Shown here: in pieces, positions 290-50,900 of the stretch
Layout of the letters: the number at the start of each line of letters is the position of its first letter
Position numbering within the stretch: position 1 is the first letter of the stretch
NCBI GenBank assembly: GCA_965213685.1
Contig: CBDBZY010000064.1
Location: 352,001 to 416,000 of the forward strand
Origin: a bacterium
GTDB lineage: Bacteria; UBA8248
Reading direction: 5' to 3'
Length of the DNA stretch: 64,000 nt
The notes under the pieces: model-generated
What the model saw: the letters and a program-made list of their open reading frames with translations, nothing else
Told to the model about the DNA's origin: nothing
The model's database searches: none
Position numbers and translations under genes: made by a program

Positions 290-830
290 TATATGTGTAG
301 TTACATGTATATGGGTATACCTGTATAATATACGTGTAAATACGTTTGTGTAGTGGCAGGTGCAGTGGTGTAAGAAAAGTGTTCATAGTCTACACAGCTC
401 ATAAGTACACGTGTACAAACCTCAAATCTACTTGTACATGTACATGTACATGTACTGTACATGTGTGCGTACATGTACATGTACATGTACACTACAGCAG
501 CCCACACATATCAGAAACTCTTCTAACACGATGATCAACAGTTTGTGTTCAACTGGTGCCTGTTAGACCATTCTGCAATGGACTATGGGTGTGTCGTGCA
601 GAAGTACAGGTAATATGCACACTCTATAGCATGTACATGTACTTGTACAATGTACATGCACTATACATGTACATGTACTTGTACATGCATGTACACACAC
701 TTGTACACATGTGTACATGTGCTGTCAGCAGTTCAGGGTCACTAGTTACAAGCACAGTGCAGTGGAGTGAAACGTCCACACAACTGCTGCCCACAGACAG
801 CAAATACATGTACGTACATGTAGCTGCAAT
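290..830. repeat. Low-complexity (TGTACA/ACATGT)-rich region
   Basis: Dense runs such as tgtacatgtacatgtaca at 433-490 and 630-720. These produce the spurious YMYM/CTCT ORFs. Confidence 0.85.
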
Positions 831-7405: not shown

Positions 7406-9632
7406 TTAAGAGCATGGGCTTTGGTTGGCCAGTAGAGCTGTGGCTGATGTCCTGCCACGGATGACTTGCAGAAGCTGCATACAGTGTATCCTACTGGACA
7501 CTCCAAGATCTTCTACAAGGATCTTCTCATCACATTCTGTGAGGATTTCCCCTGTAATATGCTCTGAAATGAATCTCTCACAGTACTGAGACAGGTTCAT
7601 AGCCTGCAACAGCTCTGCCACCTGCATATTGGTGAAGATGAATAAATCATCAGAGTACCATGTTCCAACACAAAGAGTTGAATCTATTTTCTAAAGGTGA
7701 TTGATAAGCGGGTAATAATATGTGCAGACTACACAAATCTAAAATCTCACATAACCTGACCCTTTTGATGGAGAATGTTTTCAAGTGTTGTATATTTTCT
7801 TTCTGAAGTGCTTGTTCTTTGGACATAACTGTGCCAGACCCACCTGTGGTGTTGTGTGTGATACATGCATGAAAATCTACTTACCCTGAAATTATTATGT
7901 ACGTACTTTCCTTCCCCCCCCCCCCTCCTCCCTCTTCTCCCCTTGTCTCTTGTTCCCCCCCTGCTGGTAAGTCCCTCAATTATGGTGATATGCTGGCAAT
8001 AACAATACTAGCATGTAGTCATGGTTGATGTTTATCCAAATACAGCATGTAAGAGTAAGATCCTCACCAGTTTGAAAAAAAAAGGCTCATAGTGGCTTGC
8101 CTAGCGTCATGGCTTACTACACTCACTCAATGCACATAAATAAAGTTCACTAGATACTTAGACATACCCTGTGACTTGAGTGTTGCTATTTCAGAACGCA
8201 ATGCATACACTTCTCTCTCCAACATTTCCACTCGAGCAAGTAGTTTCCTAAATTCAATCAAATTAGTTGTGGTGCCCATTTCACTGCTTTTAGTGGTTGT
8301 GAGGCTACCACTGGGTCTGACTGAAGAAAGATTGGGCCTACACGTCTCATAAGATTTTCTCTTAGTAGGCGTTAGTATGTTCAATGGCGTGTAATTATGG
8401 CGGACACCTTTTTTTGAATCTTTTGCTGGAGCACTACCTGTTTCAGCTTGTGGTGACTGCTGCTGCTTGCTGTGGAGCTTAGGTTTGGGTGTTGGATGTA
8501 GAGGAGTACTGGGTCCACTTCTATTGTGGGTAGCTAAGGCATTCACACGTTGTGGTATTACGGGGGATTGGGAGGGGATAAGGGTATCGTAGACTGAGTC
8601 TGGTTTTTGCAGCTCAAAGCCTTCCCTCTCAAACCCACTCCTGACTGCTGTGCATAGCTTAGAGGAGCTTGTTTTGATGGACAGAGTGCTGAATGCATCA
8701 AACCTCTCATAGAGCTTTCTCGTGTAGGCATACAGTCTCTCCAGCTCTGCCTTCTCCAACTGTATGACTTTCACATCTATTGGAAGGTCAACTGGGATCT
8801 CAATAGGCTTCTGATCTTCGTCTTCTTTCAAGGTGGTAGAAACAACAAGTGATGTTTCTGTATGCACTCCTGTCAAAAAGGATGCTTCAGATGTGATTTC
8901 GTAAGGTATATTCTCTGGCATGCTTGCCTCTTTCATAACCACTTGCACTTCTAGCGGAAATTCATTGGAAAAGTGCTCAATAATGTCAGGCAGGTGAAGG
9001 CAGCTTCCATAGGGATCTGTTGTGAAACGTCCCAGACAATCGCTATCCAGCATTTTCTGCTCCCTTCTTGTGATGCTGTACACTTGCAGTGCTTTCTTTT
9101 TCATTGGAGTTTGCACAATCTTTTGCACAACCAAAATTTCGTACTGCTCAACAGAAGATTTGGGGTTGCTCCGGATGTGTGGTTTTGTTGCCAGAATAAC
9201 CTTTGGCAGTTGTATCTGAGCCATTACGTCGGATACCCGCTCAAAGCGATATCCCTGCATAGCTGCTTTTAGATCACCCTTGGGGTTGAAGATTGGCCCA
9301 AACTGAATGGCTGAGTTCAGTGGAATATTGTAGACCTTATCGCCTAAATCTCTCAGCAAAGCCACCTTATTGCGCTTCACAAAGTGAACATTGTAGACAT
9401 CTCCTGTGGCTATGGAGCATCGCTCGTCACAGACAAAGTAACCCTTCTCCACGACGATCCGAAGGGGCAAACTGTGCACACACTTCAACATGAAATTGTC
9501 CAGCGTGAGTGTCTCTTCAGCTTGTCTGTTTGGAGAACTGTGTTGTTCTTCTGAGCACTGAGACCTCCCTGGTGAGTGACATTGGGACGATGATGCTCTA
9601 GGGTACATGGGGACATAGCGGTTTGCAAGCAT
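7406..9632 (-). CDS. CABIT-domain + Pro/Tyr-rich linker + coiled-coil + SAM adaptor (GAREM/THEMIS-like), paralogue A; exons 9632-8168, 7843-7761, 7621-7406
   Basis: CABIT-like LPLRIVVEKGY...YNVHFV...IPLNSAIQF...FERVSDV...LPKVI; coiled coil LLARVEMLEREVYALRSEIATLK; SAM exon VAELLQAMNLSQYCERFISEHITGEIL...LGVSSRIH. GT-AG junctions with matching phases (1, then 0). Confidence 0.85.
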
Positions 9633-11855
9633 ACTGAATACCCTGTGTAGTGAAGGAAACAAAGACCTATGATCCTGCTTGTCTTTTTAAGAGTACACAA
9701 TACCACACTCAGTGGCATAGCAATGAATACTACACACAGGAATGGGTATAACACAGAGGAGTAGGAAGCATAACAGATCTAGTAAGGCCAGACGCACCAC
9801 TTTGCATACATGTCCCCACCCACTTTGAACATGTATCTCAATAGTACAGTTCAACTTGCATGTGCCTAGTAGTAGGCTAGTAATGTGCATGCGTAAGCCC
9901 AACCCAGCACTATTGACGCTAAAGAGCTGATCTTGTACATCTCACTCGGTGACAAGGACTGCTTCACTGTTTAAGGATGGTCAGACATCATGAATATTAA
10001 TGAGGTGGCTGGTTGCTATGGGATTATATTTCGGGAAGTATGCTAGCTATACACAGTGCGATTGCACCATTATAATGCCTGCATGCACTACTGCTGATAT
10101 ACAAAGCTTCTCTTGATTACCCGCAGATCAGATGCTGAAGTAGTCAAATCTTGGCCATTTTTTAATAAAACTTCCTAATGAAGTCACCTACCTCTTTGAA
10201 ACTCAGGTACTAGGGCTATTCACACTAGTGGAATTGATTAACGTGGCCATTTTCGCTATAGCATACGCATAAGCATGAGTTTTTGAATGTTTCTCAGTGT
10301 TGGAGTGTTGAATTTGGAATAACTCCACATTACGGTCTGCGTCACCTGCTTAGGATGACGTAAATGGCTGAAAATCCCATTCCCAAACAACCTGGAAGTT
10401 TTACAGAGTTATGCACGTTTAATTGCTATGACATGCAAGGATTCCGTAGTTTTCATGGCGCAAGAATGTATGTTAAGTACCAATTAACCTTGTATGCGGA
10501 CCGAGCCCAATACGTCATCTGGCTGTGTGAGCGAGCTAGGAGCAGGCAAAGGGAAGCTTTTGTACATGCGGTGGCTTTTAGAAAAGCCGGTTAGAGAGAA
10601 AGAAAAGGAAGAAGAGGCAGGAAAGTGGACCCCGAATCAACAGCGCGGCATGATCTCTCCCTTAGTGGCTGATTAGGGCAGGAAAGCAGGACCCCGAATC
10701 AACAGCACGGCATGATCTCTCCCTTAGCGGCTTGCTCCGTACTCCCTGTTGCCAAAGAATGCTCTGGAACTCATTACTTGTCTCACACTGAGACGACCTC
10801 AGTTCACATACGGCTGAATACGTCAAGTGAAAGGCACCGCTCCAGGCGCTTGGCTTGGGTAACAGTGACACGCTTTCCCAGAGACTGAAGAAGAGCACAC
10901 ACATGACCTCTCTGTTCCTTATGACCATAGACTGCAAGCAAGCCTATAGCATGCACTCGTAGCTACTAACAAGCCCATAGCATGCACTCGAAGCTATGTA
11001 CTAACAAGCCGCACTCTAGCTCCTAAGGAACTGCAATGTAAATGTGCCCAGCTGTTGCATGTTTGTGGCTTTCACTAATTAACCCATGAAGCCCTGCTGT
11101 GCACATTCCTTTGGAGCCACATAGTATCCATGCTGGACCACCCTTAAGGTGGTGGGGTATGAAATGGATAATTAAATTTTATGTAGCGCTACTGACCAGA
11201 ATAATTAAGCAACAGAGCTTTGTAAGGCATCGTTCGAAAGGTCAAGGAATGCACTTTTATACACACACCTTCACAAGGCCTGTTCACAACACAGGGATGT
11301 AGAATTGAAGCATGAAAAGCGAGTAGTGAGAAGTGTTTTCCACATCAATTTTAGCCACAGTCACACTGTGGTAGCTGCACAAACCAACACATACCATATG
11401 CTGTTGATCTCCACCAGGGCTAGAATCACTTCATTCGCTTTATATGCAAGCAGTGGCTACGTGAGGGTCTCGTTTCCCCCGTGCGCACTGATTTTCTTCA
11501 TGATCTTTACAGTTCAGCAGCGTGTAGCTGCTAAACCGTAGTTGTATTGATGGAATTTTTACATTCCTGCCCTAGCCCTGTGTCCTTATAATAGGAATAC
11601 GAGCAATATACAGTCCAAATTTGTCTGAAGTGAACGAAAAGTTGTTGCCCATAAACCGCATTAAGCGGTAGATACGCCCGCGCAACACGCAACACTACCT
11701 CGCCACCTTAAGGTGAACATCTGACTAGAGCACTTAGAGAAAAGTTTAGTGCTAGGGGGTATGCTGATATAGTTAGTATTACACGATTATCATTGTTTCC
11801 TTATCATCATGGCAAAGTACGTAGAAACATCTCAATATCGCTATGACAATAAATA

Positions 11856-18181: not shown

Positions 18182-19210
18182 TCATGTATAACTGAGACAA
18201 ACAACTGCTACATTTATATATATGACATAGTACATGTGTTGTTGTTCATATTTATCCACAGTCCCATAACAGCCATCTGCCGTGATGCTTGCAAATGCTG
18301 ACAGTATCAGTTCTTCCATTTCTGACTCATGCAGTATCCCGACAAGAGGATCACAACTCCTCAAATAACTCTTAACATTTGAAAAGCATTCTTCAATTGG
18401 CATGTAGTCAGGAGACTAGGGTGGGAGAAACACGGCAAGAGCTCCTGTTTCTTCTATCAGTTCTGTGGCTGGGTGTGCATGATGAATTGCAGCATTGTCA
18501 AGAATGACAACACTTCTGGGGTTGGTACCATTGAATGGTAGCAACTGAGGCTGTAGATAGCGTTTGATGAAGTCACAAAATGTGTCACCATTGATACTCC
18601 CTGTGGTAATTTGCACATCAATAATCCCATCTATACACATTGCTGCAATAGCCGAGTATCTCTGTCCCCTAATCAGTGGCTTTTCTGATAGTGCACGCAT
18701 TCCTTTAAAAGAATATCCAAATTTACGAAGTGTGCTACGTTTGTCTGAGCCAGTTTCATCGACAAAGATGAACATGTGTGGCTCAAACAGTGAAATATCA
18801 GACAAAAATTGCCTTCTAAGGTCCTCTGTTGAGCTGTAAGTCTTAATTTTTTTCGGGAAAATCCCTGATGGTATAAGAATTTGCAGATGGTTGCTGTGCT
18901 TAGTTCCTGTTAACTGTAGAAGAGAGGTCTGTATCTCATGGAGATGCATAGATGGGCAGTCTAAGATCATCTGAAGTATAGCCATTTCATCAGAAGAACT
19001 CAATTTTTTGTTGGTATTTTCATGACAGCCTTGAACACTACACACTGTGCCTGTTTCTTCAAAAAGTTTTACAGTTCTGTACACATGCAGTAGAAGGATC
19101 TACATTTAGGTTCCCACTGATCTCCCTGTATGACAGCCCCAGCATGCATCGTTGATGGACCATTCTCCACCGCAACTCACTGGAGTAAGCTTTGGAGTCG
19201 ATGGAGAACA
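18182..19210 (-). pseudogene. IS630/Tc1-like DDE transposase (HTH + DDE_3), disrupted
   Basis: AYSSELRWRMV...ISGNLNVDPST (HTH), FIFVDETG, VILDNAAIHH, FLPP*SPDYMPIEECFS. Frameshifts and a stop. Confidence 0.88.
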
Positions 19211-20490: not shown

Positions 20491-22186
20491 AAGTACATAT
20501 TTTGTTATGGTATGCTTTTCATGAAACACTGTTGTGTTGTATTTCTTGTTAGTTCAAAGATGCAGTGTAAATATATCGTGATGTCTAGCTCATATTATTG
20601 GAGTATTTACTTATGTCGTCATAGGCCTATACCACCCAGCACTAAAGTCTGGAAGTAGCAGCAATACCCTTCACCGATAACACATAGTTGTGCACTGCTA
20701 GAGGAACAAGACGTAGCTCATTGACCACAACCACAAAGAGCCCTTTTGACACTGTTGGTGGGTATCAAAATTAAACTTTAAGACAAAATTCATTGCCATC
20801 TCTACATGTCCATTATGTTGCAGGCACTCACTATGTACAAACAGTGTCTCTATAAGCTAATTGGCCACACTACCACTAATCACCTGTTGGCTGACTTCTG
20901 CTTGCCCCCAGTGTTCAACATTCCACTAGTATTGGATCCTGGCTTTGATGAGGGTGTCACCTCGGCTTAACTAGGTACCTACACCATCCAAAACAAGACT
21001 GAATGCTGAGCACAAACATGAAAGCTAACCACCTACCAGTAGGGGGGGGGGGGGGAGTGGACACTATTATGCTGTGACAAGCACTAATGAATAAGCATTG
21101 CTATTCCAGGCACAGCAAAGATAAGCTAGGGAGAGATAACAGAGATGCACTAAGGAGACAGTAATCCTATTAGGGGTGAAGTGTCAAAAGTACCTTTTTT
21201 ACCTCATGTGTAATCCAGACCTTGAGAGCAATGAGTTAGTTAAGGCTAATTGGTTCTCCAGTGTCTATACAACAGTGTGTACAAACAAACACCAGGTCAG
21301 AAAGTGGTCCCCCTATGGCTCATGCAAGCACCCCACGAAAGCAGAAGGAAGTAGTGGATGCAGTGAACGAGCGGCAGTCACTCTGTCCCGCTTCTAGCTC
21401 GACAATCATTAGAGTGAGTCTGCGACAACTCCCTACTTTCCCAGACATGGAACTGGATACCTGAATATATTCAGTCCTTCATTCACTTGTAACTAAAGCC
21501 CCTGACCTCAAAGTTCCTTGGACTTCCAGTATGCCCAAACGGGTACATTCATAGGCTCAGGACGCTCCTACGCAAACGATGTACCGTACCACTGTAGAAA
21601 CAGCTAATCAGGGTTTGCATTAAAGCTCCAGAATACACACACTGAAACGCACGCTTGTTTGGCAACCCGGCCCACCCTGCAACACGTGACGGCCCTACAG
21701 CTATCACTCACTGCCACCCAACCATCACCTTTTGAAAGCAGGAGGGATATCCAGGAGGAGAAATCGACTGGGCGACTCGTGCAGTTGCAGATCACACACA
21801 CGGCTGGAGCCCTGACCCTGATAGACCTTGACCACTATTAATTGCACAAAGGGGCGCCCGCTATAGCGCCAGCGGGTTAGTAAAAAATCCTTATCGCATA
21901 GCTTAGTCTCCGCCTACCGTAAGCTATAAGCTTACGTCACTGGGGTACCCGCCGCCCAATAGGCTTGTGCACATCATTCCATGAATTCTGCCTATTATTC
22001 TATTCCAGTATTCCCACTTCTTCTACAGATTATTCCCCATATTTCACCTCAGTATTATTCCCATGAATTTTACGTATTATTCTTATACGACGAAAGATCT
22101 AGAAGAGCATATGCAAGTGGGTGAAGTAGGGAGAGTGCAAAGGTAGAGAATTCTAGGCACTTCCTTGACTCCACTACGTTCTTCAC

Positions 22187-23826
22187 TTGCAAAAAGGAGT
22201 AGCAGGGCTTAATAGAGTGAGGAGTGAGGATAAAGACCTACTTTGCAGTGAGGAGGAGGTGGAATTTCTTCTTTCATCTGTTGACCCCAACAAAGCCACT
22301 GGCCCTGATGGCATATCAGCTAGAATGCTGAAGTCAACTGCTGCTAGTATTGCACCTGCAGTTATGGCAATCTTCAATTTGTCTCTGATTCAAGGCCAGT
22401 TGCCTATGGAGTGGAAAGTGGCTCAAGTCATACCAATACCCAAGTCTGAACAACTATCTAATCCTACTAACTACAGACCAATTTCCTTGCTCTCCATTCT
22501 GAGTAAATTGTTAGAAAGGTATGTGCAAACCCACCTCCTCAACCATTTTTGCTTCTCAAAAGAAAAATCCACTACTGGTGCTCTCTTACCTGCAACGCAT
22601 ATGGCTCTTGAAGCTGGAGAGGATGTTTGTTGTGTATTTTTGGACTTGACAAAGGCTTTTGATAAGGTTCCGCATTTACCTCTCTTACAAACACTTGCTG
22701 AACGTGGAATTAATGCACACCTATTGAATTGGTTATATGACTACTTAAGCCAGAGGTCCCAGTTTGTAGTTGCAAATGGTGAGAGGTCAAAGTGCTCAAA
22801 TGTCATTTCTGGAGTACCTCAAGGATCTGTGCTTGGTCCTCTTCTCTTCATCATCTACTTGGATGGCATAACAAAACGTCCACTTCATGATGGATCTTGC
22901 TTATTGTTATATGCTGATGACATCCTACTGTATCACTGGACACAACATCATGAGGACTATCTACTTCTGCAACAGGATATTGCTACTCTGGAATTATGGC
23001 TGCAGCAAAAATACTTGCAGTTGAATGTTACCAAATGTAAGTACATGGTTTTGACAAGGAAACGCCATCCCATCGATCCCTCACATCCCTTAGCAATCCA
23101 AGGAGCTCCTATTGAGAGAGTTTTTGAGTTTAAATACTTAGGAGTATACTTGACTCACAACTTATCTTGGAAATCTCATATACTACAGATATCTAAGAAG
23201 GCTAGGAAGCAGGCAGAAATTATTTACAGAACCTTCTATAAGTATTCAAATCCTGACTGCCTGAAGCAATTGTATCTGTCATTAATTTTGTGAGACCTCA
23301 TCTTGAATATGCTGCACCTGTGTGGGATCCCTACTGTTCCTCTCATGTTGATATTCTAGAGAAAGTCCAAAAGTTTGCTCTTCGTATTTCCTACAAGGCT
23401 TGGAAGGAACAGTACACATCTCTTCTTGAGAGATCTGGACTGCAGCCTCTGGCTATACAAAGGAAACTTTTGAAACTCTGCTACCTATATCATCTCATAC
23501 AGGATGATGTCACTTTTTCTGAGGCTCCAATTATTCCTAGGAACCTTGATCCCCGGCTCAGAAACTTCTACCCACAACTTCTTTGCCAGCCATATTGTAC
23601 ATCCACCTCATACATGTTCTCATTTTTTCCGCATGTTATTGCATTATGGAACGCTTTACCTTCTGCATTGCATTGTGTTGATACATTTTCTGAGTTTAAA
23701 TGTAATGTTTTGTCCTTCCTGCAGGCTGATTGTGTTGTGTTGGTGTAATATGGGTGCATTGTTTATTAGCAACATGTTACTAATGTATCCTTGCGTGTAT
23801 GTGCAAACTTTTCATAGAAAAAAAAT
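22187..23826 (+). mobile_element. 5'-truncated LINE (CR1/L2-group) RT, nearly intact, with short A tail
   Basis: KATGPDGI, NYRPISLL, FLDLTKAFDKV, SGVPQGSVLGP, YADD, KYLGV; one frameshift to RPHLEYAAPVW...SFFPHVIALWNALP; A-run at ~23818. Confidence 0.93.
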
Positions 23827-32355: not shown

Positions 32356-44597
<12,242 letters not shown>

Positions 44598-46909: not shown

Positions 46910-47784
46910 TAATCCCGTAAATACCCGTAAATAAAACACAATGCATGCCTACAAATGTTTCCACTCCCATACCTATACACAGCTTGGAAACCTGGAACTG
47001 ATTCAGTGACATGTTTGTATATGTGGGGGCGCCCACTATAAGTAATGATATGTTGCTTGGTTAGCAACTTTGTCTATCTGTAATCTTTTCTGCAGTCTTT
47101 AGCTACACGAAAACCTATGCATTGGGAGTGATACTGTTGAAGTCTCCTTCAAAATGAGAGTGCCCCAGCAAAGTCCTCAGTCAACTGAGGCACCTATTAA
47201 CATGCAGCTAACACTCCTCCTCCTCTCACTATGGTCACTACATGCGGGGGTGCAAGCGCCACTCCGTTACGTAAACAACACTTCATTCCACAAGTGTAGA
47301 GTGCTCTTTACTTTAATTTCTTTACTTGTTTGCAGTACACTGGCCTGCATGCAGATGTATATCAGTGTTGATTTATTTGGTGACATCACCCATAATTTGG
47401 CTTACTTAGTGGGCTTTGACAAATTATGCTAGCATAATTTTGAGCAGAATAGGTACTCAATAGCATAATACTTGCTCTAGCCCTTCCGAGAAAATCAATA
47501 CATGTAGGGGTACTCTTAATTACCGTGTATGACTATAAAACTGATACAGAGGGCATGCAATGAATCAAGTAATGGTTAACTTTTTGCAATTTTTAGAAAC
47601 CATAATGGGGCAACTTTGATGCACATCATGATTATAAGAGAATACCATAATAGGTAATTAATTTTATCAAGGCGCATTGCTTAGTACATTCCCACTTGTT
47701 TGCTAGTCGCTAAGGCCGGCGGCTGTGGTGACATCACTCATAGCTTAGCTTGCTTAGTACACCTGGTTGTTGGCTCCTATCGTG

Positions 47785-50151
47785 ATGGCTCAACAGCAGT
47801 TCCGCTTCGGCACTCTCCGTCTGATGCGAGACGCCACCCTCGGCACGGGAGCGTACGGACAGGTGTGTAAGGCCACGCTCGACGAGCTGCCCTGTGCGGC
47901 CAAACTCCTCCACCCCATCCTGGTGGATCCCAACAACCCCAGGAACCGGACAAAGTTCGAGCAGGAGTGTCGCTTCCTCAGCGATATTCGGCACCCCAAC
48001 ATAGTGCAGTATCTGGGCGTAGCGCAGTATGGAGAGACGGGCCTGCCCGTTCTGCTGATGGAGTTGATGGACGACTCCCTCACTCACTTTCTGGAGCGAT
48101 CGGAGGAGCCTCTGGCCTACCACGTGCAGGTGAACATCAGCCACGACATTGCCCTTGCTGTTGCCTTCCTGCACTTGAATCGCATCGTTCATCGAGATTT
48201 ATCCAGCAACAACGTGTTGCTTATCGGTACTGGCAGCAAGGCAAAGGTGACCGATTTCGGGATGAGCAAGTTGACCGAACTGAATCCTCGCATGACTGGC
48301 CTAACCAAGTGCCCAGGTACCCCAGCCTACATGTCTCCTGAGGCTTTGCTTGACCCTCCTGTTTACACAGAGAAGCTGGACTGCTTCCAAGCAGGAGTGC
48401 TTATGATCCAAACCATCACTCGCAAGTTTCCTGACCCAGGCCCAGCAATGAACAGAGTGAGAGATGCGAGGTACCCAACAGGGTGGGCTAATATTCCAGT
48501 ACCTGAAGTGGAGCGGCGTCAAAACCACCTTATTCTTATCCCCCAGACTCACCCGATGTTGCGTATTGCTGTGGACTGCTTGAAAGACACGGACAGTGAA
48601 CGTCCCTCAGCCCAGCAGATTTGTCAATACCTGTCAGCTCTGAAAGAGGCTCCACAATATGGCCAGAGCCTTGAGGGAAGGGGAGGAGAAAGGGATGGAG
48701 AAGTCATAGAAAAGGAAGAATTGATTCAGCAGCTGAAAAAAGAGAACCAGGAGAGAGAGAGAGAGGTTAGAGAAAGGGAAAGGGAGGTTAGGGAGAGGGA
48801 GGGAGATATCAAATGTCTTCAGAACCAGCTGCAGCAAAAGGAGGGAGAGGTGAGGGATAGGGAGAGGGAGGTTAAGGAGGTGAGGAAAATGGCAAGAGAG
48901 AGAGAGAGGGAGAACATTGAAGAAATCCATCGTCTTCAAACGGTCATTCAGGAGAAAAACCAGATGATTCATCAGCTGCAGCAGACACAGCAGTCTGCCC
49001 CCTCCTACACTTGCCTGGTCAGTGGCCCAGGCCTACAGTCAGCCACTGCCAACCACCCAACACATGTCATAGTTGAGGCGAGTGAGTCCAATGGTAGGCC
49101 ATTGTCACGCAAACAGAATGTCACTGCTGAGCTAGTGCCACTGCCCACCTCACAAGCCACACCCACAAGTGGTCGATGGCCATGGTCCAAAAAGGTCAGA
49201 ATCTCAGTAGCCATGATATCTCCCTCCCGATATGAGGTGTCCTACATAGCAGTCAGACGAGGCCAACACAAGCTCCATGTTCGAGTCAATGGTAGTGAAA
49301 TCAATGGCAGTCCCTTCACCATGACCGTGTACCCTGACCCCACTCAACTAGGCTCCCCAGTGAGGGTTGTGACAGGCCTAATCAGTCCATATGGTATTGC
49401 TGTCAACAGTCGTGGTGAGATGGTGGTCACTGAATCTGATGGTCATCGAGTTTCTGTGTTTGATGTCAGAGGACAGAGGGTTCGAACATTTGGGTCACAT
49501 GGTGACAGACCAGAGCAGATGATCAGCCCTAAAGGCATGGCAGTGGATGATGTGGACAATATTTATGTGAGCAGTCATGACAAGCTGCAGAAGTTCACTA
49601 GCAGTGGTGAACTGATCAAGTGTGTCGGTCAGAGGGGCAGTAAGGAGGGGGAGTTTGATGATCCACATGGAGTCACCATACACAGCAATCAAGTGTATGT
49701 ATGTGATTCATATAACCATCACATTCAAGTGTTTGACCTGGACTTGAACTTCATTCAATCCATTGGCTCACATGGCAAGGGAAGAGGAGAATTTTATTGG
49801 CCACATGATGTTGCATTCGACACTGCTGGGAACATGTATGTAGCTGAGTATGGAAATGAGAGGGTGCAAGTGATGGACAGCAGTGGACAGTTCATAAGAG
49901 CATTTGGTCAGGAAGGAGAGGGAAAACTGACTTGGCCAACAGCTCTTCACATTGCTGACAAGTATGTGTATGTATCTGACTACAGTCAACACCGTATTGT
50001 GGTGTATCAGACCTCAGGTCACTTTGTCACCTCATTTGGGAGGTATGGTGATGGGGAGGGAGAGTTGAGTTATCCATACTGTATCACCTCTTGTGCCAAT
50101 GGGTTTATACATGTGTGTGATTGTGTAAACAAGCGAGTCCAAATATATTGA
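47785..50151 (+). CDS. Single-exon protein kinase (TKL-like) + coiled-coil + filamin/Ig + NHL beta-propeller fusion protein
   Basis: GTGAYG, CAAK, HRDLSSNN, DFG, MSPE; EREREVRE coiled coil; filamin SGPGL...YEVSY...GQHKLHVRVNGSEINGSPF; about 6 NHL repeats (PYGIAVN, PKGMAVD, PHGVTI, PHDVAFD, PTALHI, PYCITS). Uninterrupted ORF. Confidence 0.93.
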   Translation: MAQQQFRFGTLRLMRDATLGTGAYGQVCKATLDELPCAAKLLHPILVDPNNPRNRTKFEQECRFLSDIRHPNIVQYLGVAQYGETGLPVLLMELMDDSLTHFLERSEEPLAYHVQVNISHDIALAVAFLHLNRIVHRDLSSNNVLLIGTGSKAKVTDFGMSKLTELNPRMTGLTKCPGTPAYMSPEALLDPPVYTEKLDCFQAGVLMIQTITRKFPDPGPAMNRVRDARYPTGWANIPVPEVERRQNHLILIPQTHPMLRIAVDCLKDTDSERPSAQQICQYLSALKEAPQYGQSLEGRGGERDGEVIEKEELIQQLKKENQEREREVREREREVREREGDIKCLQNQLQQKEGEVRDREREVKEVRKMARERERENIEEIHRLQTVIQEKNQMIHQLQQTQQSAPSYTCLVSGPGLQSATANHPTHVIVEASESNGRPLSRKQNVTAELVPLPTSQATPTSGRWPWSKKVRISVAMISPSRYEVSYIAVRRGQHKLHVRVNGSEINGSPFTMTVYPDPTQLGSPVRVVTGLISPYGIAVNSRGEMVVTESDGHRVSVFDVRGQRVRTFGSHGDRPEQMISPKGMAVDDVDNIYVSSHDKLQKFTSSGELIKCVGQRGSKEGEFDDPHGVTIHSNQVYVCDSYNHHIQVFDLDLNFIQSIGSHGKGRGEFYWPHDVAFDTAGNMYVAEYGNERVQVMDSSGQFIRAFGQEGEGKLTWPTALHIADKYVYVSDYSQHRIVVYQTSGHFVTSFGRYGDGEGELSYPYCITSCANGFIHVCDCVNKRVQIY

Positions 50152-50770
50152 GTGGATTATATATTTAGTGTTCATGTACATGTCATTATATTTTGGGTTC
50201 ATGTACATGTCGTAGTTTTTTAATTCCAAGTTTTGTCCTCTTATGATTGTATGGGCTTCATATGATACTAGACCAAGTGTTGTTATGTAATCAGTGGTAA
50301 TCATATCATGTACAATGTGAGTTGTGTGCATGTGTGTGCTTCAATGGTTAGAATGCAGTTTCTCTTTGTATCACCTAATTGCCACAGTCATGTGATATGG
50401 TTCAGCTGCTCATGATTGATGAAACATGAACTTTTCCTAGTACCACAATTCACCTCACGATACTCACATAAATACTCAAGCCTGCCATTGACCATGTACC
50501 CAGTGTAGGTAGAACCAGTTGGAAATCTTAGTCCACCTGGAGATGGTATGGTAATAATTACTCAGTTGACACAGGTGAGGAAGGAAAAGAATGGAAAGAT
50601 AAACTTCCATCCGGGCATCGAACCCAGCACTCAGAGACAGCACCAGGCCATTACCCAGGACAAAAGTTTATATCCCCATTCTTTCCTATGTACTGCCAGT
50701 GGTCGTTGGCGAATCTGCCAACCTCACACTGACAGACCCCCCAGTTTTACATGAACGTACACATAACAAA

Positions 50771-50900
50771 CCGTCATCTGTCACCCGGTGGCCATAGCTC
50801 AGGTGGTAGAGCACTGACAGCTAAAGTCAGAGGCCCCCGGTTCAATCCCGGGTGGCTGCTGGTTTTTCACAGTTCTCTAAAATATTCCCAAGCCTTTCCT
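50771..50900 (+). mobile_element. tRNA-derived SINE-like repeat (cloverleaf 50788-50860)
   Basis: A box TAGCTCAGGTGG, B box GGTTCAATCC; 11-bp direct repeat cacataacaaa at 50760-50770 and 50901-50911; 3' tail similar to 28490-28540. Confidence 0.75.

Follow-up and report, generated by a model that had tools for sequence, protein, structure and literature searches.

A protein kinase joined in one reading frame to a coiled coil, a filamin-type repeat and an NHL propeller is encoded within a 64,000-nucleotide stretch of DNA (the window) belonging to an assembly that is filed as a prokaryote genome. Whose gene is this, how did its parts come together, and what might a protein so assembled do? The original prediction described the protein as a TRIM-NHL body carrying a kinase in place of the RING and B-box domains, and proposed that it might be a cytosolic sensor kinase belonging to a modular innate-immune repertoire. 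The features of the locus, all on the forward strand, are as follows.

47726..47758, +: second copy of a 33-nt direct repeat (first copy at 47378-47410, 85% alike)
47785..50151, +: complete single-exon ORF (P0001), 788 aa plus stop; start backed by Met1 conservation
47830..48630, +: protein kinase, residues 16-282, TKL-like (Pfam Pkinase, E 5.7e-37; IRAK4 is the best solved relative)
48691..48990, +: coiled coil, residues ~303-402 (one predicted helix, a dimer model and internal repeats)
49012..49320, +: Filamin/ABP280 Ig-like repeat, residues 410-512 (Pfam, E 6.8e-14; Foldseek match to 6fq3)
49342..50148, +: six-bladed NHL beta-propeller, residues 520-788 (Pfam NHL, 9.7e-25; PDB matches)

A sponge gene in an assembly filed as prokaryotic

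The 788 codons run without an internal stop and form the longest of only 13 stop-to-stop frames of at least 180 aa in the window. The open frame extends back to 47758 and includes a TTG at 47767; conservation of Met1 at 90% or more in an alignment of 85 family sequences supports the ATG at 47785 as the start. The uninterrupted frame and the Pfam domains listed above bear out the prediction of an intact, single-exon kinase-coiled coil-filamin-NHL gene. The highest 19-residue hydropathy of the encoded protein is 1.19, with no transmembrane segment, and the protein is predicted to be soluble. Upstream, the second copy of the 33-nt repeat stops 27 nt short of the ATG; its 12-nt core occurs five times across 4.9 Mb of host contigs, where ~0.6 occurrences would be expected, and no link between the core and other kinase genes was found in these contigs.

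The window's contig has a GC content of 44%, a CpG o/e ratio of 0.46, and ORFs of at least 200 aa over 15% of its length, whereas in the assembly's ~45 bacterial contigs the GC content is 61-69%, the CpG o/e ratio ~1.07-1.23 and the long-ORF cover mostly above 0.9. A bacterial origin was rejected on these three measures. Some of the sequencing runs containing the stretch are labelled as sponge metagenome, and the nearest Atlas clusters are from Porifera. In addition, the window contains transposable-element relics (DDE_3, RVT_1 and gag-protease-RT-integrase), in agreement with the decayed elements noticed around the gene. The 788-aa ORF is a nuclear gene of a sponge, and this host DNA has been mis-binned into the MAG of a bacterial symbiont. 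Animal DNA accounts for ~4.9 of the 7.97 Mb in the "prokaryotic" record, and was missed by the marker-gene quality scores under which the assembly is filed (completeness 94%, contamination 3.7%).

Searching the 4.9 Mb of host DNA for relatives of the ORF gave 19 matches, of which one is full length, this being the copy at 47785..50151 itself. A genome scan for family members yielded L024, a fragment of 850 bp, together with 13 kinases from planctomycetes that are 23-27% identical, and a metagenome scan returned four loci, none of them in the family (kinase at best 42% identical, short NHL fragments at 40-57%). None of the listed sequencing runs containing the stretch is recorded as RNA. The contig pieces listed for runs X17 and X19, which we guessed to be RNA, are at most 254 nt long and none of them bridges the kinase to the NHL part; bins across the ORF are covered and the flanks are not, which is equally expected from another species sharing only the coding sequence.

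From the first to the last quartile of the ORF, GC3 falls from 0.72 to 0.44 and CpG o/e from 0.75 to 0.15. The 5' part is indeed richer in GC and CpG, as had been noticed, but this gradient cannot be taken as a sign of mixed origin, since the same fall is seen in all four kinase-coiled coil-only genes and in two of the four RING-headed TRIM-NHL genes of the host. The 5' excess is positional, and a trace of mixed origin was rejected on these grounds. Retroposition was also rejected: there is no AATAAA or ATTAAA within 1.2 kb on the 3' side, the longest A run is 6, no target-site repeat flanks the gene, and the sampled host relatives of both families are all single open frames as well.

A large family built from two modules

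Pkinase, Filamin and NHL domains occur together in 120 of the 120 best relatives, which are 62-85% identical to the protein. Fifteen of these relatives share a longest-contig figure of 680,751, taken here as one contig, and 1116 contig pieces from run X1 lie on the ORF at a likeness of at least 90%, a figure that reflects many related sequences rather than copy number. By these sequence comparisons, the gene is a member of a large, uncharacterised, sponge-associated family of single-exon genes and not a one-off chimera. Our literature search found no paper on sponge kinase-filamin-NHL or kinase-Kelch families; the supplement on the Amphimedon kinome, which lay outside that search, may mention fusions. 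Because the gene is neither single-copy nor characterised, the concern that it might be a widespread single-copy orthologue already described elsewhere does not apply. The accessible part of one report credits sponges with the largest reported animal kinome and with unusually many NHL-repeat proteins (PMC3538665). Moreover, the accessible parts of two studies of sponge immune challenge describe Kelch-motif genes along with responsive kinases that carry Sushi, DEATH or LRR domains, and make no report of the kinase-filamin-NHL architecture (PMC8242945, PMC6208332).

The kinase head matches 1323 cluster representatives at E<=1e-30. Over residues ~3-297, the nearest 150 (representatives of 50%-identity clusters) are mostly 51-80% identical, five of them falling below 50%, and four domain probes assign Kelch tails to 88, filamin and/or NHL tails to six, and neither to 56. 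Pfam scans of 29 representatives then identified AIG1, an autophagy-receptor zinc finger, C2 and PARP in one each, so that the modularity envisaged for this kinase is indeed found, with Kelch, filamin/NHL, AIG1, PARP, C2 or zinc-finger tails, or with no tail. The same host DNA carries kinase-coiled coil-Kelch, kinase-coiled coil-only and RING-2xB-box-coiled coil-filamin-NHL genes, all as single open frames. The gene itself has the features that define the sponge kinase-coiled coil head clade, namely a head that is at least ~50% identical, a coil directly after it, and a single open frame. Kinase-coiled coil-Kelch proteins, one of which is encoded in this host, have the same head at 52-60% identity and also continue into a beta-propeller, but theirs is a Kelch rather than a filamin-NHL propeller, and they are more numerous and more diverse. 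Some Porifera Atlas clusters of these Kelch proteins have been auto-named "kelch-like protein 4".

On a kinase tree of 157 rows, the gene lies within a 15-row clade (local support 99) that includes an AIG1-tailed protein, with a head 80% identical, and three other rows without filamin-NHL. The filamin-NHL label requires four changes on this tree, at least two of them forced by well-supported branches, although the tails classed as "OTHER" include truncated gene models. A tree of 43 filamin-NHL rows groups the 17 kinase-linked tails together (SH-aLRT 99) and places the 23 RING/B-box-linked tails in a clade of their own (97). Since the kinase-linked tails make up one clade apart from the sampled RING/B-box-linked tails, their history is consistent with one old fusion and a later expansion, on trees that are quick or FastTree builds from samples picked by similarity and without bilaterian TRIM-NHL rows. 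The protein has two modules, a head of kinase plus coiled coil and a tail of filamin plus NHL.

In the coiled-coil region, AlphaFold predicts one helix at residues 308-398, and the coil, which is partly built from 21-nt and 63-nt internal repeats (ERE/VRE heptads), is the family's most length-variable part, with an entropy of 1.18 bits. Residues 286-405 match the post-kinase coils of the wider sponge kinase clade, at the same place in the protein, and the same query finds none of four host TRIM-NHL coils at E<=10. A dimer model of the coil reaches an ipSAE of 0.56, compared to 0.00 for the best of three controls; this mark is reached by 20 of 30 solved one-chain pairs and by 1 of 23 solved single chains, counts that hold only roughly because our own alignment was used. 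Contact agreement between runs is at least 76% and partner pLDDT at least 78. The lowest-error contacts pair residue i with residue i from 335 to 388, and the coil is therefore modelled as a parallel, in-register dimer. TRIM coiled coils, including those of TRIM-NHL proteins, are antiparallel dimers. A TRIM-derived coil was rejected on the kinase-clade matches, the failed search for host TRIM coils and the parallel model, and the sequence matches place the coil with the kinase head, the module joint lying at about residue 400, between coil and filamin. The view of the protein as a TRIM-NHL body (coiled coil, filamin and NHL) with its head exchanged does not hold, in that only the filamin-NHL part is TRIM71-like.

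A conserved kinase with an unusual catalytic loop

The best solved relatives of the kinase by sequence are IRAK4 (E 5.7e-24), BRI1 (~4e-20) and TAK1 (~1.5e-18). Its likeness to IRAK4/Pelle and to other TKL-group kinases (BRI1, BIK1, TAK1, DLK, Raf and LIMK) is one of kinase sequence, at group level only: IRAK/Pelle proteins have an N-terminal death domain, whereas the sponge kinase starts at residue 16, gives no Death match in Pfam and has no other IRAK feature. AlphaFold models this domain poorly. When aligned to IRAK4 and EGFR, the kinase has a glycine loop (GTGAYG), the VAIK-type lysine (in CAAK), the HRD aspartate and catalytic-loop asparagine (in HRDLSSNN), DFG, and an APE-type motif (SPE). 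To this extent, the claim that all catalytic motifs are intact is correct. The catalytic loop is the exception, however, because HRDLSSNN, unlike the IRAK4 (HRDIKSAN) and EGFR (HRDLAARN) sequences, has neither the lysine of Ser/Thr kinases nor the arginine of Tyr kinases, and so lacks the basic residue that an active ePK has in this loop. As a result, catalysis may be weak, unusual or absent.

Among the best 120 relatives, HRDLSS[NS]N is found in 113, KVTDFG in 109, CAAK in 101 and YMSPE in 118. More distant cousins in the host DNA have the catalytic loop HRDLSARN or HRDLTAKN, and in a sister kinase-Kelch gene of the same host HRG and DFA replace HRD and DFG. The family alignment gives the kinase the lowest mean entropy of any domain (0.56 bits), and the 788-aa copy matches the family consensus at the invariant positions of the 85-sequence alignment. 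With a dN/dS of 0.16 against L024 (221 codons, dS 0.71), a value from one pair only, these measures indicate that the kinase domain is under constraint.

A propeller that varies on one face

The tail is of the TRIM2/3/71 kind, as predicted, resembling TRIM71, TRIM2 and Thin in both sequence and fold. AlphaFold models the filamin repeat with a pLDDT of ~85-89 and the propeller above 90. PDB sequence matches of the NHL part include Thin (1.6e-49) and TRIM2/3/71 (e-41 to e-38), and the best Foldseek match is the RNA-bound filamin-NHL structure of Danio Lin41 (6fq3; E 2.7e-35, TM 0.78 by target), with the Thin NHL domain (rmsd 1.7 A, TM 0.88) and the TRIM71-RNA and Brat-RNA complexes also matched. 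The protein thus shares its filamin and six-bladed NHL module with the TRIM-NHL proteins (TRIM71/LIN-41, TRIM2, TRIM3, Drosophila Thin/TRIM32, Brat and Mei-P26). It differs from them in having, by Pfam, the kinase at residues 16-282 instead of an N-terminal RING, and no zf-B_box match in place of their B-box zinc fingers, whereas host TRIM-NHL genes scanned in the same way yield a RING and, in each, two B-boxes. The coil also differs, being modelled as parallel and unrelated to host TRIM coils. Moreover, the output of TRIM-NHL proteins is that of an E3 ligase, whereas the head here is, from its sequence, a kinase, and the tails fall in their own clade.

Mean entropy within the propeller is 2.23 bits in the B-C loops and 1.22 in the D-A loops, compared to 0.80 in the A-B loops, 0.57 in the C-D loops and 0.63 in the strands, where blades and loops were delimited by DSSP on the predicted model and protein-level entropy mixes paralogues with orthologues. 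The B-C and D-A loops lie on one face, and top and bottom loops differ at p = 6e-6 (Mann-Whitney), a comparison with the bottom loops as its sole internal control for the greater tolerance of loops than strands to change. Thirty-one NHL sites are hypervariable (at least 2 bits), mostly in the B-C and D-A loops. Their residues are 22.4% aromatic (12.6% elsewhere), 16.9% basic and 15.4% acidic, with higher shares than elsewhere of Y (10.0 vs 3.7%), W (3.0 vs 0.1%), R (11.2 vs 6.6%) and D (11.0 vs 6.4%); the variable face is rich in Tyr, Trp, His, Arg and Asp. The RING-headed host family varies on the same face, although less sharply (B-C 2.07, D-A 1.46, A-B 1.01 and C-D 1.12 bits), with a per-site Spearman correlation of 0.57 to the kinase-linked family.

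A candidate recognition repertoire with a phosphorylation output

Taken as a whole, the best explanation in our view, with a probability of roughly 0.6, is a diversified set of intracellular recognition proteins whose output is phosphorylation. The coiled coil would dimerise in parallel, bringing two kinases next to each other with a pair of filamin-NHL units at the opposite end, and the variable propeller face, which is not basic overall, would bind a ligand specific to each paralogue, a protein or glycan being likelier than RNA. Ligand binding, or the clustering of dimers on a multivalent ligand, might then lead to trans-phosphorylation by the kinases, or might deliver the kinase to the bound target. 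Such a kinase repertoire would act in parallel with the TRIM-NHL family of the same host, whose output is that of an E3 ligase. What hints at an immune role is only the size and diversity of the family and the company of AIG1, PARP and zinc-finger tails.

A kinase followed by an NHL propeller, taken as ligand-binding, is also seen in PknD (Mbk), a Ser/Thr receptor kinase of Mycobacterium tuberculosis, for which the accessible part of the report gives a kinase-TM-NHL propeller order (PMC1262709); the PknD sensor (1rwi) matches the modelled propeller with a TM of 0.80. PknD is bacterial and spans the membrane with its propeller outside the cell, whereas the sponge protein lacks a transmembrane segment, has a coil and a filamin repeat between kinase and propeller, and is the product of an animal gene. 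The two architectures are convergent, not homologous.

The alternative that fares best is a substrate-targeting kinase, in which the dimer would be constitutively active and the variable face would recruit different substrates, much as Kelch or NHL domains bring substrates to E3 ligases, nothing being "sensed". We regard this as unlikely, yet deserving of serious attention: the TRIM-NHL family of this host bears the same kind of propeller, with the same variable face, on an E3 head, and the parallel dimer model puts the kinases together without a ligand. The present data do not separate this explanation from a sensor, however, and the sharper face contrast favours neither. An RNA-binding regulator, whose NHL face would bind RNA motifs as do TRIM71/LIN-41 and Brat while the kinase acts on RNP components, is improbable. 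The RNA-bound state of the best fold match, the further matches to TRIM71-RNA and Brat-RNA complexes, and the sequence matches to TRIM71 and TRIM2/3 speak for it, but RNA-binding NHL faces are strongly basic, whereas the NHL domain of the 788-aa copy has a net charge of -9 and its family's hypervariable sites show the balance of basic, acidic and aromatic residues given above.

We also strongly doubt that the gene is an inactive or decaying copy, be it a scaffold with a pseudokinase or a duplicate that lies silent and dispersed from an arrayed family. Such a copy would account for a catalytic loop without lysine or arginine, and for the presence of a sole full-length copy in 4.9 Mb of host DNA when relatives share contigs elsewhere. 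Nevertheless, 788 codons have stayed open where long frames are rare, the odd loop is conserved in nearly all of the best relatives, DFG, CAAK and SPE are kept, dN/dS is low, and the family consensus is present at invariant positions. Hardly any credence can be given to a "eukaryote-like protein" of a bacterial symbiont, even though the assembly is filed as a prokaryote genome with the scores quoted and NHL-, ankyrin- and TPR-repeat proteins are a known feature of sponge symbionts, given that the contig departs from the bacterial contigs in GC, CpG o/e and long-ORF cover, that the window has reverse transcriptase, integrase and DDE transposase relics, and that the bacterial kinase matches are only 23-27% identical.

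The recognition repertoire that we favour might be part of a wider arrangement, which we offer tentatively and would not ourselves bet on: a germline-encoded and highly diversified intracellular receptor repertoire of sponges in which one filamin-NHL scaffold serves two outputs, E3 ligase or dimeric kinase. The kinase head would also be combined with further tails for recognition or effector functions (Kelch, AIG1, PARP), the whole being an animal counterpart of the diversification of plant receptor-like kinases and NLRs, and perhaps helping the sponge to distinguish or manage the members of its dense internal microbial community. On the same reading, the conserved HRDLSS[NS]N loop might mark an unusual catalytic mechanism or substrate class.

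For sponge biology, these findings show that the kinome and NHL expansions are partly one family, with a conserved kinase head, dimeric in our models, and a propeller that is variable on one face. The swap of E3-ligase and kinase outputs on the same recognition scaffold would provide a natural experiment. Moreover, should the variable face prove to bind ligands of microbial or self origin, the family would become a candidate, open to testing, for the means by which sponges discriminate between symbionts, food and pathogens without adaptive immunity.

Domain organization of the protein

Window positions 47785-50151 on the plus strand form a single uninterrupted frame (788 codons and the stop), which is the longest of the 13 frames of at least 180 amino acids in the 64-kb window and is far longer than expected there by chance. 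Three domains are recognized in its product:

Residues 16-281 (+), protein kinase domain (Pfam E 5.7e-37)
Residues 410-512 (+), filamin repeat (Pfam E 6.8e-14)
Residues ~520-788 (+), six-bladed NHL propeller (NHL repeats by Pfam, E 9.7e-25)

An AlphaFold model computed from 85 family sequences contains a single long helix at residues 308-398 and renders filamin confidently and the propeller very confidently (pLDDT >90); its kinase part is of poor quality, probably because the alignment was restricted to close relatives. The top Foldseek match is the filamin-NHL structure of Danio rerio Lin41 (6fq3, E 2.7e-35, TM 0.78 by target), followed by the NHL domain of Drosophila Thin (rmsd 1.7 Å); in sequence searches, the NHL part hits Thin at 1.6e-49 and TRIM2/3/71 at e-38 to e-41. 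IRAK4 is the best sequence match of the kinase (E 5.7e-24 with the kinase searched alone), and no membrane segment is found in the 788-residue protein. Frame, Pfam, AlphaFold and Foldseek results together confirm the kinase-coiled coil-filamin-NHL chimera of the original prediction, encoded without interruption. Upstream of the frame is a 33-nt direct repeat (47378-47410 and 47726-47758, 85% alike), the second copy of which stops 27 nt short of the ATG. Its 12-nt core occurs five times in the host contigs against ~0.6 expected, and the repeat may belong to a promoter or a UTR.

Animal DNA in a bacterial genome record

The assembly (GCA_965213685.1), recorded as a prokaryotic genome of 7.97 Mb in 71 contigs, is a mixture of bacterial DNA and DNA resembling that of an animal (sponge) host, which its scores (completeness 94%, contamination 3.7%) leave unrevealed. 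About 45 contigs have a GC content of 61-69%, a CpG observed/expected ratio of ~1.07-1.23 and long ORFs covering nearly everything. Another 22 contigs, totaling 4.90 Mb and including the 1.64-Mb contig (C64) that carries the window at 352001-416000, have GC <56%, and nearly all of these show CpG ratios of 0.18-0.47 and long-ORF cover of 0-55%, so that the set looks like methylated animal DNA. Several observations point to a sponge as the host. Sequencing runs containing the stretch include some labelled sponge metagenome, the closest Atlas clusters are Porifera, and a fragment 81% identical to kinase residues 1-221 lies on an 850-bp scaffold (L024) filed under the sponge symbiont MAG Candidatus Entotheonella sp. 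TSY1, itself a further example of sponge host DNA within a symbiont genome record. The animal-type setting that had been assumed for the gene is therefore borne out, and "intronless" has to be judged against an animal genome. The decayed transposable elements reported for the window are also present, as relics of an LTR-type element (gag, protease, reverse transcriptase, integrase), a second reverse transcriptase and a DDE_3 transposase; a 519-residue frame among the four listed has a weak CABIT domain match:

Window 39559-42848 (-), 22169-23290 (+), 18419-19099 (-) and 8130-9686 (-), transposable-element relics and the CABIT frame
Window 50787-50861 (+), tRNA-like element, anticodon CTA (ARAGORN)

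Just 5' of the tRNA-like element, at 50492-50700, summed contig depth in the DNA sequencing run X1 is ~36,000-44,000 versus ~120-140 in unique flank, and the two together probably represent a SINE of tRNA origin or some other high-copy repeat.

A family with relatives in the host

The gene is a member of a family rather than a one-off chimera. All 120 best protein matches, query included, combine Pkinase, Filamin and NHL domains, at 62-85% identity and sizes of 721-1009 amino acids. The longest contig is 680,751 in each of 15 of these relatives, with smaller groups coinciding at other values, a pattern suggestive of tandem arrays. In run X1, 1116 contig pieces match the frame at 90% likeness or more, a figure that indicates many related sequences and not copy number. 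Within the 4.9 Mb of host DNA the gene is the sole full-length copy (one of 19 matches). The partial matches include four canonical RING-2xB-box-coiled coil-filamin-NHL genes (Pfam was run on three of them, and the fourth is a near-copy of one of these), one kinase-coiled coil-Kelch gene and several genes with kinase and coiled coil only, all of them single open frames of 428-824 amino acids:

C41:348376-350559 (+), kinase-coiled coil-Kelch gene (L003), by Pfam, same head clade
C41:408861-410144, 531593-532876, 374469-375773 and 568087-569514 (-), four near-identical kinase-coiled coil-only genes
C7:290794-295817 and C52:4533-7676, canonical TRIM-NHL genes in tandem

The Kelch protein is likely to be a pseudokinase, judging from its degenerate glycine loop and the replacement of HRD by HRG and of DFG by DFA; an in-frame TH repeat encoded by (CA)n precedes it. 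The four kinase-coiled coil-only genes share the catalytic loop HRDLSARN. Three encode a short hydrophobic C-terminal tail and might be tail-anchored, and the fourth has an in-frame TGA. On C7 two TRIM-NHL genes are arranged head to tail; the short contig C52 carries near-identical copies and is probably allelic to this stretch or a duplicate of it.

The joint lies between coiled coil and filamin

The gene had been described as a TRIM body, coiled coil included, on which a kinase replaced the RING and B-box, a view that the coiled coil does not support. A search with residues 286-405 retrieves the equivalently placed coils that follow the kinase in other proteins with such a head, Kelch- and AIG1-tailed ones included, and retrieves no coil from the four TRIM-NHL genes of the host. 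As coiled-coil matches are possibly compositional, residues 290-520 were also modelled as two copies, giving an ipSAE of 0.56 versus 0.00 for the best of three controls; as a rough guide, with our own alignment used, this level is attained by 20 of 30 one-chain-pair solved proteins and by 1 of 23 single-chain ones. At least 76% of contacts are shared between runs, and partner pLDDT is at least 78. Contacts join residue i with residue i over the interface 303-402, so that the coil is modelled as a parallel, in-register dimer. TRIM coils are antiparallel. The matches and the parallel model place the joint between coil and filamin, and the protein therefore reads as [kinase + coil] + [filamin + NHL]. 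Imperfect repeats of 21 and 63 nt, GAGAGAGAGG-rich and encoding ERE/VRE heptads, make up the coil-coding DNA at window 48688-48906, which fits the wide variation in coil length among relatives (721-1009 aa).

Listing the C-terminal domains to which this kinase clade is fused, a check proposed with the original prediction, yields Kelch, AIG1, zinc-finger, C2, PARP and filamin-NHL tails. The kinase head alone retrieves 1323 cluster representatives (50% identity clusters, E ≤ 1e-30), and probing the best 150 with the window's own domains and a host Kelch domain gave 88 kinase-Kelch forms, 6 with filamin and/or NHL, and 56 with none of these. Pfam was applied to 29 proteins: 25 from the group of 56, all having tails of ~200 amino acids or more, one protein extended at its N terminus, and three long Kelch forms. 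It returned AIG1, an autophagy-receptor zinc finger, C2, PARP and an N-terminal DUF4581 once each, Kelch three times and kinase alone in 21.

A 157-row kinase tree places the gene in a clade of 15 (support 99) comprising 11 filamin-NHL forms, an AIG1 form with a head 80% identical, and three others. The filamin-NHL label requires four changes on this tree, at least two of them being forced by well-supported branches, and truncation of gene models surely accounts for some of the "other" rows. The filamin-NHL tree (43 rows) separates the 17 kinase-linked tails (SH-aLRT 99) from the 23 RING/B-box-linked tails (SH-aLRT 97), each group being a clade of its own; when a host TRIM-NHL tail was the query, its 120 best relatives all lacked a kinase. 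On the simplest reading of these trees, a kinase-coil head would have captured filamin-NHL once, long ago, and then expanded with occasional later exchange of tails.

Retroposition, the other route suggested originally, is neither shown nor needed: no AATAAA or ATTAAA lies within 1.2 kb downstream, and there is no run of more than six A and no flanking direct repeat. The reported 5' excess of GC and CpG is real, GC3 falling from 0.72 to 0.44 and CpG observed/expected from 0.75 to 0.15 between the first and last gene quartiles, but it fails as a trace of domain origin. A like fall occurs in all four kinase-coil-only genes and in two of the four RING-headed TRIM-NHL genes of the host, and thus tracks position in the gene; in a methylated genome, genes would be expected to be rich in CpG at the 5' end.

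State of the kinase

Glycine loop, CAAK lysine, HRD, DFG and SPE are all present, as predicted; the claim that every catalytic motif is intact nevertheless does not extend to the catalytic loop, HRDLSSNN, which lacks both the K that aligned IRAK4 has at the first S and the R that EGFR has at the first N. S-S-N or S-S-S is retained in 113 of 120 relatives, and more distant host cousins have HRDLSARN or HRDLTAKN. CAAK is kept in 101, KVTDFG in 109 and YMSPE in 118 of the 120, the misses being partly truncated models. Conservation is highest in the kinase (mean entropy per site 0.56 bits, versus 0.72 for filamin, 0.91 for NHL and 1.18 for the coil), and comparison with the L024 fragment gives a dN/dS of 0.16 (221 codons, dS 0.71, a single pair). 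Low entropy and low dN/dS therefore show constraint on the head.

Variation on one face of the propeller

NHL strands were taken from the DSSP string of the predicted model, and entropy over 120 family members was sorted by structural element. Strands (mean 0.63 bits), A-B loops (0.80) and C-D loops (0.57) vary little compared with B-C loops (2.23) and D-A loops (1.22), variation in the latter being concentrated in the two residues preceding strand A (top versus bottom loops, Mann-Whitney p = 6e-6). A four-stranded antiparallel blade has its B-C and D-A loops at one end and its A-B and C-D loops at the other, which puts the variable sites on a single face; conventionally this is called the top, and it is the side on which Brat and LIN-41 bind RNA. 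At the 31 sites of at least 2 bits, Tyr, Trp, His, Arg and Asp are over-represented, and the NHL domain of this copy has a net charge of -9. In the RING-headed family the same face varies, less sharply (B-C 2.07, D-A 1.46, A-B 1.01, C-D 1.12; p = 0.04), and per-site entropies of the two families correlate (Spearman 0.57). Such one-sided variation looks like a diversified binding surface, short of proof of positive selection.

Relation to known systems and possible role

Kinase-propeller joins, the large kinome and NHL abundance of sponges, and TRIM-NHL proteins themselves are already known. According to PMC1262709, bacterial PknD joins a propeller to a kinase (kinase-TM-NHL), and its structure 1rwi is among the Foldseek matches of our model; PMC3538665 reports a large kinome and abundant NHL repeats in sponges. 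The full-text literature searched contains no description of the kinase-coil-filamin-NHL family, its parallel coil, its odd catalytic loop or its one-sided variability; the Amphimedon genome paper and the kinome supplement lie outside that literature and may bear on these points.

We propose that the variable propeller face binds paralogue-specific ligands, protein or glycan being likelier than RNA, and that ligand binding or clustering would activate the paired kinases or steer them to the bound target. The kinase-linked family would then be a recognition repertoire beside the TRIM-NHL family, with a different output. Family size, diversity, and the presence of AIG1, PARP and zinc-finger tails on other members of the clade lead us to guess at an immune or symbiosis context.
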